From: Rickettsiales bacterium
Lineage (GTDB): Bacteria > Pseudomonadota > Alphaproteobacteria > Rickettsiales > JAIXRX01
DNA: 64,000 nucleotides
Assembly: GCA_965247145.1 (NCBI GenBank)
Contig: CBDFGH010000003.1
Location: 33,085-97,084, forward strand
Direction of reading: 5' to 3'
Shown here: positions 6,296 to 40,598 of the stretch, in pieces
Position numbering within the stretch: the stretch's first letter is position 1
Layout of the letters: each line of letters opens with the position of its first letter
The notes under the pieces: generated by a model
The model's database searches: none
Told to the model about the DNA's origin: nothing
The model's input: the letters and a program-made list of their open reading frames with translations, nothing else
Position numbers and translations under genes: made by a program

Positions 6296-6372
6296 GGGGT
6301 CGTAGCTCAGCTGGATAGAGCACTAGTTTCCTAAACTGGGGGCCGCGCGTTCGAATCGCGCCGATCCCACCA
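6296..6372 (+). tRNA. tRNA-Arg (anticodon CCT)
   Basis: The cloverleaf was folded by hand. Acceptor stem is GGGGTCG/CGATCCC, D arm GCTC/GAGC, anticodon arm CTAGT-TTCCTAA-ACTGG, T arm GCGCG-TTCGAAT-CGCGC. The discriminator is A and CCA is encoded. Confidence 0.9.
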
Positions 6373-6711
6373 CTCCTGCATTTTTGGTTGTATAGACGAA
6401 TCCCAACTCGACCGATACGCGCGCGCGGCGCGTGGGGTATTTTAACTTCTTCTCAGCGCCGATCTGTGAAAAACGCCGCGCGTCTACCCCTCGAAAACCT
6501 CGCAGGAATCTGTTTCCATATATGGAAATTCAAGATATTGTCGTTTTGGATGGAGATTTCCGTCTGGGGCTTCAAAACCTCTCGCAAGTCGGCAGGGCAT
6601 CTGCCGTCATCAAACTGCCACCCTACGCAAATGCGTCGGGGTGGTGGCGTTATACAACAGCCGTGAGGTAAAAGCGTCGCGGTCGTATTTGCTTACGACT
6701 TCTAAACACCC

Positions 6712-6747
6712 CGACACCAGCGTGGAAGCGTTGGTGTCGTTTTCTCT
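6712..6747 (+). terminator. rho-independent terminator
   Basis: An 11-bp stem (CGACACCAGCG / CGTTGGTGTCG, one G-U pair) is followed by TTTTCTCT. It ends 3 nt before the IS left end. Confidence 0.65.
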
Positions 6748-21577: not shown

Positions 21578-21654
<77 letters not shown>

Positions 21655-37742: not shown

Positions 37743-40598
37743 TTAGGCCGCCACGATGTTGACGATCTTGCCGGGAATGACGATCACTTTGCGGATCGTC
37801 TTCCCTTCCAGATGTTGCAGCACATTCGGCACCGCCATGGCCTGGGCTTCCAGTTCGGGCGGCGCCAGGCCGACCGGCACTTCGATGGTCGCACGCAGCT
37901 TGCCGTTCACCTGCAGGGCGATGGTGGCGGTGTCTTCGACCAGCAGGGCCGGATCGGGCTTCGGCCAGGCGGCATCCGCGATCAGGCCGCTATGGCCCAG
38001 CGCCTCCCAGGCCTCTTCGGCGAAATGCGGCAGGAAGGGCATAAGCAGCCGTACAAGCGTTTCGACCGCTTCGTGACGAATGGCTCGCGCCACGTCGCTC
38101 TCGGCGCTCAGAAGGGGCTCTACGGCGTTCGTCAATTCGCGCAGACGCGCGACCGCTTTGTTGAAACGGAAAGCATCGATGTCTTCGGTGACGCCCTGAA
38201 TGGTTTTGTGGGTGGCGCGGCGAATTTCAAGCAGCGCAGGCGGCAGCTCGGCGGGCAAAGCTTGCAGGCCGTGGTGGGCGGCCAGATCGTCGAGATCGCC
38301 GACCACCAGACGCCAGAGGCGATTCAGATAGCGCCAAGCGCCGTCGATGCCCGCATCGGTCCATTCCAGATCGCGCTCGGGCGGGGAATCGGACAGCATG
38401 AAGAGGCGCGCGGTATCCGCACCGTAGGATTCGATGATGTGGGTGGGATCGACGACATTCTTTTTCGACTTGCTCATCTTCTCGGAGCGGCCAACCCAAA
38501 CTACGCGCCCCGTAAGCCGGTCTATATGAATTTTACCTTGGCTATCGGCGACATTGAGCTTGTCTTTATCAGGTAAGGTGGCAATCGGGATGCCGTTATG
38601 GGAAACCTTCCAACGTTGTTTTACAGCTCCCTCATAGCTTGCATCGGGGGCGATCAAATTGCCGTCTGCAGGATTGATGTGTTCCAAGCCCAATTGCCAA
38701 GGCATGCTCAGTAATTCGTTTTTTGAAAGAATTTTACCTTGGTCGCTAAAGTAAATATTCTCAAACTCCAAATCCTCTGCGCTATCAAAAGTGGTTACAT
38801 TTTCAGGAAACGACCATAGGCCATCCGAGTCCTTATACGTTTCATGGCAGATCATGCCTTGGGTCATGAGGCCGGTGAAGGGTTCCTTCACGCTGAGATG
38901 CCCGGTGGCGTTCAAGGCGCGGGTGAAGAAGCGGGCATAGAGCAGGTGAAGCACGGCATGTTCGACGCCGCCGATATATTGATCGACCGGGAGCCAGTAA
39001 TCACAGGCTTCCTTGTCCAAACCATGTGCGCTGTTGGGCGAGCAGAAGCGGGCGAAGTACCAGCTGGATTCGAAGAAGGTGTCGAAGGTATCCGTCTCGC
39101 GCAGGGCCTTGCCGCCGCAGCCGGGGCAATCAACATGCTTCCAAGTGGGGTGGTGCTCCAGCGGATTGCCGGGTTTGTCGAAAGTCACGTCTTCCGGCAG
39201 GGTGACGGGCAATTGGTCGCGGGGCACGGGCACGGTGCCGCATCCTTCGCAATGGATGATGGGGATCGGGCAGCCCCAGTAGCGCTGGCGGGAAATGCCC
39301 CAGTCGCGCAGGCGGTAGTTGGTCTTGCCTTCGCCCATGCCGCGCGATTGCAATTCGGCGACTACGCGCTGCTTGGCTTCTTCGCTGCTCATCCCGTCGA
39401 GGAAGGCGGAATGGGTGAGCGCGCCGGGGCCGGTACAGGGCAGGGTGTCGTCCTGTCCCGCGGCGGGGGCGATGACGGGGAGGATGGGCAGGGCGTATTT
39501 GGTGGCGAATTCGAAATCGCGCACGTCATGCGCCGGGCAGCCGAAGACCGCGCCGCTGCCATATTCCATCAGCACGAAATTGGCGACATAGACGGGATGG
39601 CTGCGGCCCGGTTCGAAAGGATGGGCGACGCGCAGGCCGGTATCGTAGCCGCGTTTTTCTGCGGTTTCAATGGCTTCTTCCGAGGTGCCCGTGCGGTCGC
39701 ATTCGGCGATGAAAGTCGCAAGTCGCAAGTCGCAAGTCGCAAGGGACTTGGCCAGCGGGTGGTGCGGGGCGATGGCGAGGAAGCTCATGCCGAAGATGGT
39801 ATCGGGCCGGGTCGTATAGACTTCGATCTCTCTGGGCAATTCCCCTTGCGACTTGCGACTTGCGACTTGCGACTGATCGAGTGCAAAACGAATCGTCGCG
39901 CCCGTCGATTTGCCGATCCAGCGCTCCTGCATGGTGCGGACCTTTTCGGGCCAGTCGGGCAGGGATTTGAGGGCTTCGAGCAGCTCTTCGGCATAGGCGG
40001 TGATGCGCAGCGACCATTGGGAAAGCTTGCGGCGTTCGACCAGCGCCCCGCTGCGCCAGCCGCGGCCGTCGATCACCTGTTCGTTGGCGAGCACGGTGTG
40101 GTCGATGGGGTCCCAGTTGACGAAGGCTTCGCGGCGGTAGGCCAGGCCTTTGTCGAGCATGTCGAGGAAGAAGGCCTGTTCGTGCCGATAATAATCCGCG
40201 TCGCAGGTCGCGAATTCGCGGTTCCAGTCGTAGGAGAGCCCGATGCTTTTGAGCTGTTCGCGCATGCTGGCGATGTTTTTGCGGGTCCAGGCGCCGGGGT
40301 GGGTGTGGTTCTGGATGGCGGCGTTCTCGGCGGGCAGGCCGAAGGCGTCCCAGCCGATCGGGTGCAATACGTTATAACCCTGGGCGCGGCGCGCGCGGGC
40401 CACTACATCGCCCAACGTATAGTTCCGCACATGGCCCATATGGATGTTACCCGAAGGGTAGGGGAACATTTCCAGCACGTAATATTTCGGGCGCGCGGGG
40501 TCGATCTCGGCGGTGAAGGTGCCGCGCTCGGCCCAGGCCTTCTGCCATTTGGCTTCGGCCTCGCGGAAAGGATAGCGGCTGGGGCGGGGGTCGGACAT
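37743..40598 (-). CDS. leuS: leucine--tRNA ligase
   Basis: 951 aa from [11 protein letters not shown]. The HMGH, TTRPDT and KMSKS motifs are present. The listed ORF extends 24 codons upstream through a palindromic element. Confidence 0.95.
39714..39745. repeat. heptamer array (AGTCGCA)x4 + AGGG, arm A of a 32-bp perfect inverted repeat
   Basis: Read directly from the sequence. It lies inside leuS and is translated as [13 protein letters not shown]. Confidence 0.95.
39843..39874. repeat. CCCT + (TGCGACT)x4, arm B (exact reverse complement of arm A)
   Basis: Read directly from the sequence, 97 nt from arm A. It lies inside leuS and is translated as [13 protein letters not shown]. Confidence 0.95.

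Follow-up and report, generated by a model that had tools for sequence, protein, structure and literature searches.

Among the longer simple sequence repeats (SSRs) of most bacterial genomes, heptamers form the most abundant class, and it has been proposed, as PMC4679880 summarises, that the polymerase has a 7-nucleotide (nt) footprint favouring slippage. In Xanthomonas, arrays of the heptamer GGGAATC preferentially hold four units and often lie as convergent pairs able to form a stem-loop; they occur genome-wide, are mostly intergenic and are depleted within coding regions (PMC4692102). Replication template switching, for its part, creates perfect inverted repeats in one event and corrects imperfect ones, and it both keeps them conserved beyond neutral expectation in Proteobacteria and rewrites codons (PMC8794818, PMC5941160, PMC8604942). 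Here we analyse an inverted pair of heptamer arrays inside leuS, the gene for leucyl-tRNA synthetase (LeuRS), in a 64-kb stretch of a Rickettsiales genome (contig CBDFGH010000003.1; hereafter the window). The element combines features of both kinds of system. We propose, with a probability of about 0.5, that it is an in-frame quasi-palindrome that homogenises itself: heptamer slippage and replication template switching between its two arms would have created it and would keep it perfect.

Like the convergent heptamer SSR pairs of Xanthomonas and the heptamer/STRR arrays of Nostoc and its relatives, the leuS element consists of tandem 7-nt units, about four of them, in a close inverted pair; convergent pairs of (AGTCGCA)n itself are also found in Nostoc, Tolypothrix and Uliginosibacterium loci. 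Those SSR families are multi-copy and mostly intergenic, whereas the leuS element occupies a single locus in the 64 kb examined, without the many dispersed intergenic copies, and both its arms are translated in an essential gene. It further differs from them in that one arm is native, in that its position is orthologous across a clade, and in that its heptamer changes in concert. With template-switch quasipalindromes it shares inverted arms with a short spacer, clustered compensatory multi-nucleotide changes, over-conserved arms and the rewriting of codons, and the mismatch spectrum of its arms, which is at the Watson-Crick level and shows no G·U filter in a small sample, fits inverted repeats of this origin. 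In the template-switch studies cited above the arms are described as short and not as tandem arrays, whereas the leuS arms are 25-32 nt long and internally periodic, and this periodicity adds register-shifted pairing and within-array homogenisation to what is known of the kind. As far as we found in the literature searched, persistence of such a structure across synonymously saturated lineages has not been described before.

All coordinates are those of the window, in which leuS lies on the minus strand; upstream and downstream are used in the sense of the gene, and WIN denotes the leuS gene and LeuRS protein of the window. The features concerned are as follows.

37743 to 40598, minus strand: leuS (leucine--tRNA ligase, 951 aa), the host gene; an open reading frame with an exact match to the database protein P0001, with Pfam tRNA-synt_1 and Anticodon_1 domains in its homologues, and with matches among solved LeuRS structures.
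39843 to 39874, minus strand: upstream arm, (AGTCGCA)x4 + AGGG in the sense of the gene, coding for Q242-G252; defined by sequence, frame and ortholog alignment.
39746 to 39842, minus strand: core between the arms, 97 nt, including the TTRPDT codons and coding for the entry strand and threonine-rich motif of the CP1 editing domain; native and conserved.
39714 to 39745, minus strand: downstream arm, CCCT + (TGCGACT)x4 in the sense of the gene, coding for S285-T295; defined by sequence, frame and gapless alignment.

A repeat search of the window returns the arms as an inverted repeat of 32 nt, 100% complementary, with a 97-nt spacer: the window strand reads (AGTCGCA)x4 + AGGG at 39714-39745 and its exact reverse complement at 39843-39874. 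Tandem Repeats Finder likewise detects an array of period 7 in each arm, with 4.4 copies in one, 4.3 in the other and 100% matches in both. Both arms are translated in frame within leuS, their peptides flank the TTRPDT segment, and the heptamer holds no stop codon in any frame, all as a first-pass annotation of the bare letters had described. The two-unit 14-mer AGTCGCAAGTCGCA has six matches in the window, all within the two arms (0.57 expected; none of 100 shuffles reaches six), and no further period-7 array was found in the 64 kb, even at 17 of 21 matches, nor in the shuffled sequences. Shifted pairing registers between the arms appear as additional inverted-repeat matches (I2-I5). When folded, as that annotation had advised, the sense RNA is very stable (-89.8 kcal/mol, z = -9.0 against shuffles), and no Rfam family matches across leuS at E <= 1.

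Nine further LeuRS proteins were chosen in which the loop holding the upstream arm exceeds the minimum length by 5-6 residues, and for each of them DNA of about 3 kb was fetched. These lineages (L122-L125 and L206-L210) are independent assemblies from four sources (NCBI, ENA, JGI and Logan). Period-7 arrays stand at the same two codon positions in all nine, and at least eight heptamers are used across the ten lineages, with the following units in the downstream sense.

WIN: CTTGCGA
L207: CTTGCAA
L206: CTSGCAA
L210: CYGGCAA
L125: CYAGCGA
L208: CTCACGA
L124 and L209: CTCTCGA
L122 and L123: CTCTGAA

In every lineage but L125, that is in nine of ten, the two arrays are reverse complements of each other and form helices of 19-32 nt that contain 0-4 mismatches. 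Predicted folds reach -58 to -94 kcal/mol in those nine; in the L125 fold (-56) the two arms are not paired with each other. The segment from WIGKS to FIx measures 183 nt in 8/10 lineages, 186 in L207 and 201 in WIN, and the spacers span 88-100 nt in the other lineages. We assessed covariation on an ungapped alignment of the eight 183-nt sequences, taking columns 22-51 and 140-169 as the helix. In these eight lineages 80% of helix cells are paired, and sliding the partner by 1-3 columns lowers this to 26-39%; both sides have changed in 16 of the 30 helix pairs (35 cells), and none of 500 shuffles reaches the observed covariation. Even single variant units can be mirrored, as in L208, where CTGACGA downstream faces AGTCGTC upstream. 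Our control set comprised 80 metagenome leuS loci, of which nearly all lack the insert and none exceeds 67%: the two sites show no excess complementarity in 38 located leuS loci of other alphaproteobacterial lineages (z near 0), and the array-bearing leuS loci (29.6 kb) contain 18 period-7 arrays, the 80 control loci (219 kb) one.

Recurrence on this scale bears directly on two of the readings offered at first pass. In favour of an assembly or engineering artefact, the sequence is unnaturally regular and the protein is on record from the source contig only. Yet the open reading frame is intact, the 32-nt arms are shorter than sequencing reads, L001 (the closest relative, described below) independently carries a near-identical downstream array, and nine independent assemblies show the same architecture, each with its own heptamers. 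These nine lead us to reject an artefact, to which we give a negligible chance. Lineages differ in their heptamer, and this makes an array bound by a repeat-recognising protein unlikely as well. Nor do relatives carry the same arrays without variation, as a fixed neutral oddity would have implied: the arrays vary, and they vary in concert.

The two arms have different standings in the protein. No gap is needed to align the downstream arm with any of the LeuRS orthologues or with solved LeuRS structures; the absence of any length change there, already remarked on at first pass, is thus upheld, and this arm is therefore native editing-domain coding sequence. In an AlphaFold model of WIN LeuRS (mean predicted local distance difference test score, pLDDT, of 84.3) it falls in a helix-turn-helix of the editing domain (H281-287 and H291-303, pLDDT 89-90). 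The consensus of the native segment, LA-x5-LA-F, has a period of 7 residues, that is, of 21 nt; with threonine written as ACT, each CTn GCn ACT amounts to 1.3 heptamer units, and both Leu-Ala-Thr triplets fall in one heptamer phase. The upstream arm, on the other hand, is an insertion relative to insert-less orthologues, in a loop of highly variable length just before the TTRPDT strand. The model puts it where a beta-hairpin turns from strand 230-240 to strand 257-262, at the tip, with a local pLDDT of 75; it is a short lineage-specific insert in a permissive loop. The first-pass annotation had raised the question of whether both peptides are lineage-specific; by the alignment the upstream segment is, and the downstream one is native.

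These alignments also bear on whether the element is mobile. Insertion of the whole unit was considered and rejected, the core and the downstream arm aligning gaplessly to orthologues and solved structures; because the core is native, conserved LeuRS sequence and the downstream arm brings no change of length, the pair as a whole is not an insertion. In a broader form of this idea, a small mobile or genome-wide family of heptamer hairpins, akin to the heptamer pairs of cyanobacteria or Xanthomonas, to miniature inverted-repeat transposable elements or to Rickettsia palindromic elements, would have inserted in leuS and been kept uniform by exchange with genomic copies. Among the matches listed, unrelated genomes do contain the exact (AGTCGCA)3 21-mer in more than 119 stretches, and in about ten of these it forms convergent pairs with 27-210 nt between them; moreover, a second hairpin in the leuS of L122 (1159-1306), which also has one further array, is a complete 45-residue in-frame insert, and L001 carries a different palindrome-rich insert in the upstream-arm loop. 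We nevertheless hold this reading to be unlikely, as the 64 kb contain no other copy, the repeat search of the window shows no direct repeats flanking the arm pair that could be target-site duplications, no recombinase or transposase gene is found among the neighbours of leuS, which are ordinary genes (porin, DUF3576, LptE-like and MnmE), and no sign of cassette transfer between lineages is seen.

The (AGTCGCA)3 arrays elsewhere (L003-L121, among the matches listed) belong to Nostoc, Acidobacteriota, Uliginosibacterium, Acidimicrobiia and others. They mostly hold 3-4 units and lie mostly outside long open reading frames, sometimes as convergent pairs and occasionally in frame, as in L016, where an array is part of a 1874-aa open reading frame. 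No case inside leuS was found in those genomes among the matches listed; L083 has leuS, with the array outside the gene.

The arms of WIN are written in rare codons (CTT, ACT, CGA, AGT and GCA, with fractions within their codon families of 0.11, 0.10, 0.07, 0.09 and 0.12, respectively), and the upstream peptide is wholly different across lineages (SQVASRK, RVQSSEF, RIESRES, VVSRESS), yet always encoded by the complement of the downstream arm. Because of these rare codons, and because the differing upstream peptides stay complementary, the constraint acts on nucleotides and not on protein. A reading in which selection favours two 7-residue-periodic peptides, the nucleotide regularity being a side effect, can point to the native L-A-x5-L-A-F that the downstream peptide keeps and to models in which both segments are ordered or semi-ordered. 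It would have to account for perfect identity at synonymous positions and for exact reverse complementarity between the coding sequences of two unrelated peptides; the synonymous-site pattern effectively refutes it, and we consider it very improbable.

We propose instead that the repeat is a product of DNA copying. The permissive loop, which lies about 100 nt upstream of the native LA-x5-LA-F segment, would have received an inverted copy of it, and slippage, for which 7-nt units are favoured in bacteria, together with template switching would then copy sequence from arm to arm. Because the arms are periodic, they could pair in registers shifted by 7 or 14 nt, and switching in shifted registers, combined with slippage, would spread any unit variant through both arrays while keeping the arms complementary, a form of concerted evolution. 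Protein function would only restrict the choice of heptamers and the extent of the arrays (about four units, between HPLA and FIxEC), and stop-creating heptamers would be avoided through it; L125 uses the unit CCAGCGA where CTAGCGA would give an in-frame TAG. The arm peptides would be by-products of the nucleotide repeat, written in rare codons, and the very stable 32-bp stem that mRNA or single-stranded DNA could form around the TTRPDT codons would be tolerated, not required. The properties of the element would, in sum, follow from DNA copying and not from a dedicated function.

Several lineages show arrays beyond the canonical pair. In L208 a second inverted pair built from the same heptamer lies in loops of the anticodon-binding domain (2318-2546), L206 holds a third copy of the upstream array (1391-1428), and L125 has an extra array in another leuS loop (2736-2759); together with the second hairpin of L122, they suggest that arrays spread locally within leuS. 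The upstream arm of L125 does not match its nearby downstream arm; its match is an (ACCACTC)n array at a distance of 1.44 kb (of 24 positions, 20 are Watson-Crick pairs and 4 A·C). In L124, a G-to-A variant that breaks pairing by giving A·C mismatches is present in three of the four upstream units, which indicates that homogenisation within an arm can run against pairing.

Two arrays lie outside the leuS coding sequence: a (GTAATTG)x4 array in the control locus L127 (626-658), at an estimated position just upstream of the leuS start, and an (ACTCGTT)-type array in the LptE-like gene downstream of leuS in L210 (2929-2958). Arrays are therefore not strictly confined to the coding sequence of leuS.

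A stem selected in the sense RNA should tolerate G·U pairs and purge A·C mismatches. The primary helices of nine lineages contain 238 Watson-Crick pairs, 5 G·U, 9 A·C and 5 other mismatches, and adding the secondary hairpins brings the counts, still a small sample, to 9 G·U and 17 A·C. G·U is thus not favoured over A·C; we therefore see no RNA wobble filter and reject a G·U-tolerant stem in sense RNA. An RNA-level structure, as offered in the first-pass annotation, may still apply in general, but this mismatch spectrum lends it no specific support. It may be that a leuS mRNA or DNA hairpin is selected for a role in leuS expression, with template switching merely the source of variation. The stem could form only on poorly translated mRNA and lead to double-strand-specific cleavage, or it could pause ribosomes ahead of editing-domain synthesis, perhaps with a coupling to the leucine codons of the downstream arm. 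The strong covariation speaks for such selection, as do the position, register and length conserved over deep divergence, the stable folds in 9/10 lineages, the concentration of arrays in leuS, the toleration of rare codons and the 2-3 leucine codons present in every downstream arm. Apart from the mismatch spectrum, however, it is opposed by the spread of mismatching variants within an arm in L124, by the loss of local pairing in L125, by the absence or disruption of the structure in the closest relatives and in many clade members, by the lack of an Rfam family or of a published precedent in the literature searched, and by the leucine codons themselves, which are native to the peptide and occur in array-less lineages too. 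On balance we regard a selected hairpin as the main rival, though as a tentative possibility only.

A more ambitious reading, which we hold to be speculative and rather doubtful, makes the hairpin a conserved intragenic regulatory device, whose multi-register periodic stem, in leuS mRNA or DNA, would sense translation of the leuS message and feed the LeuRS or leucine status back on leuS expression. Such a device would belong to a new class of control elements for aminoacyl-tRNA synthetase genes, spread over two translated segments. In its weaker version, the periodic inverted arrays would be a self-propagating sequence state that overwrites native coding sequence and persists for very long without function.

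A rough neighbour-joining tree of 111 LeuRS sequences, computed with both arm segments masked, places the array-bearing proteins scattered inside one broad clade ('FGMSF' type), interspersed with insert-less sequences. Because the position, frame, register and length of the arrays are identical, these data favour one old origin and later losses. In L001, in L002 and in many members of the clade the structure is absent or disrupted, and these two relatives illustrate two stages of its loss. L001 (P0002), the closest, shares 77% identity with WIN LeuRS, and 90% nucleotide identity in the core. Its downstream arm, CTTGCGACTTcCGACgTGCGACTTGCGACT, is the WIN array with two nonsynonymous mismatches and codes for LATSDVRLAT, and a search for a remnant of the upstream arm in L001 gave no trace; its state is that after loss of the partner arm. 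The loop holds instead an unrelated G/C-rich, palindrome-rich insert of about 50 residues (L001 about 2720-2870). L002, the next relative, has no insert and no periodicity, yet the same type of downstream peptide.

The palindromes of the L001 insert include CCTCCCCCCTAGAGGGGGGGAGG and GAGGGGGGTGGGG...CCCCACCCCCCTC. Since this palindrome-filled insert sits at the same place, the upstream-arm loop seems to be a hotspot for hairpin-forming inserts.

The arrays have outlasted the silent sites around them. L122 and L123 share their heptamer, as do L124 and L209, while the synonymous identity of their cores is 0.32-0.43, no higher than the gene average of 0.53-0.55. Recent horizontal transfer of an arm-core-arm cassette was rejected on this ground. 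Heptamers shared despite such low core identity mean that the arrays have been held at the nucleotide level while nearby silent sites have been saturated. Furthermore, the 64 array nucleotides of WIN show no substitution since its split from L001, where 7-14 are expected (P about 1e-3 to 1e-6); something therefore keeps the arrays uniform actively.

Perfect 32-bp inverted arms could also serve a DNA inversion switch, in which the 97-nt core is flipped between them to give an alternative or inactive LeuRS, and the inverted allele of WIN contains no stop codon. Stop codons do appear in the inverted allele of 6/9 lineages, leuS is essential with one copy seen in the window, and no recombinase gene lies next to it. 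The recombination switch, another of the first-pass suggestions, does not survive these observations as one that keeps the protein readable, and we deem any inversion switch most improbable.

Some of our observations weigh against the slippage and template-switching origin that we prefer. No template-switch event has been observed directly, and the databases searched contain no relative above about 77% identity, hence no pair of parent and derived states from which such an event could be reconstructed. The position, register and length of the element are strikingly conserved (183 nt in 8/10 lineages), and a neutral structure might vary more. Arrays are concentrated in leuS (none elsewhere in the 64 kb, and 18 in 29.6 kb against 1 in 219 kb), which could mean a role specific to this gene. 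The mismatch count on which the lack of a wobble filter is based (9 against 17) is small, and the 97-nt spacer is longer than in classical quasipalindrome hotspots.

Because the defining features that we looked for are absent, the leuS element falls outside the other families of bacterial repeats. Rickettsia palindromic elements (RPEs) are in-frame palindromes found in alphaproteobacterial genes, in surface loops, where they add a peptide without destroying function. The second hairpin of L122 and the G/C-rich insert of L001 resemble them; an RPE is, however, inserted as a whole and has many copies in each genome, whereas in leuS the core and one arm are native and the window has no other copy. 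For the same reasons the element is not a miniature inverted-repeat transposable element, as neither whole-unit insertion nor multiple copies (in 64 kb) or target-site duplications are found. With the SSRs of contingency loci the arrays share a non-triplet unit within an open reading frame, where gain or loss of one unit would shift the frame. They differ from these SSRs in that they form a complementary pair, lie in an essential gene and not in a surface or restriction gene, and conserve their unit number, which in contingency loci varies between close relatives. An invertible switch should yield a usable product in both orientations and have a recombinase nearby; the inverted core holds stop codons in 6/9 lineages, and the neighbouring genes include no recombinase. 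REP and REPIN sequences are extragenic imperfect palindromes of 20-40 nt with a GTAG or CGTC tag and a high copy number (PMC3733652), whereas the leuS arms are intragenic, not individually palindromic, untagged and confined to a single locus. Nor is the element a CRISPR, attC site or terminator; the first-pass judgement that no standard element type fits is one we share, Rfam being equally empty, and no earlier description of the leuS hairpin-array structure was found in Rfam or in the literature searched.

Other features of the window stand apart from the arrays. At 38480-38850 (minus strand) lies an in-frame, lineage-specific insertion in leuS, about 90 residues long, with a G+C fraction of 0.39-0.50 against about 0.62 for the gene; it is absent from L001 and L002, is modelled with pLDDT 41-55, and includes two perfect copies of the 14-nt sequence GAATTTTACCTTGG in direct orientation, one at 38528-38541 and the other, 201 nt away, at 38729-38742. 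Positions 1-22000 of the window have a G+C fraction of 0.48-0.56, compared with mostly 0.55-0.67 in the remainder, and hold two tRNA genes and an Rfam sRNA-Xcc1 match adjoining one of them (6296-6369, 6635-6723 and 21581-21654). The sRNA-Xcc1 family is associated with integron cassettes. This part of the window may be a genomic island.

The preference for four units in Xanthomonas has been attributed to G-quadruplex formation. The same preference is seen here in sequences unable to form quadruplexes, and the (AGTCGCA)n arrays of unrelated genomes show it without G-tracts, which sits awkwardly with that explanation. Should the selected hairpin be the correct reading, a tRNA synthetase gene would turn out to contain a new control element within its coding sequence. 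If, on the other hand, slippage and template switching made and maintain the arrays, this locus would be an unusually clean natural case of the two processes dictating the amino-acid sequence of an essential enzyme, in which a mutational mechanism overrides codon preference and persists across synonymously saturated lineages. Clustered nonsynonymous changes may then arise without positive selection, and covariation strong enough to call an RNA structure may arise without RNA function, which would be a caution for comparative methods.

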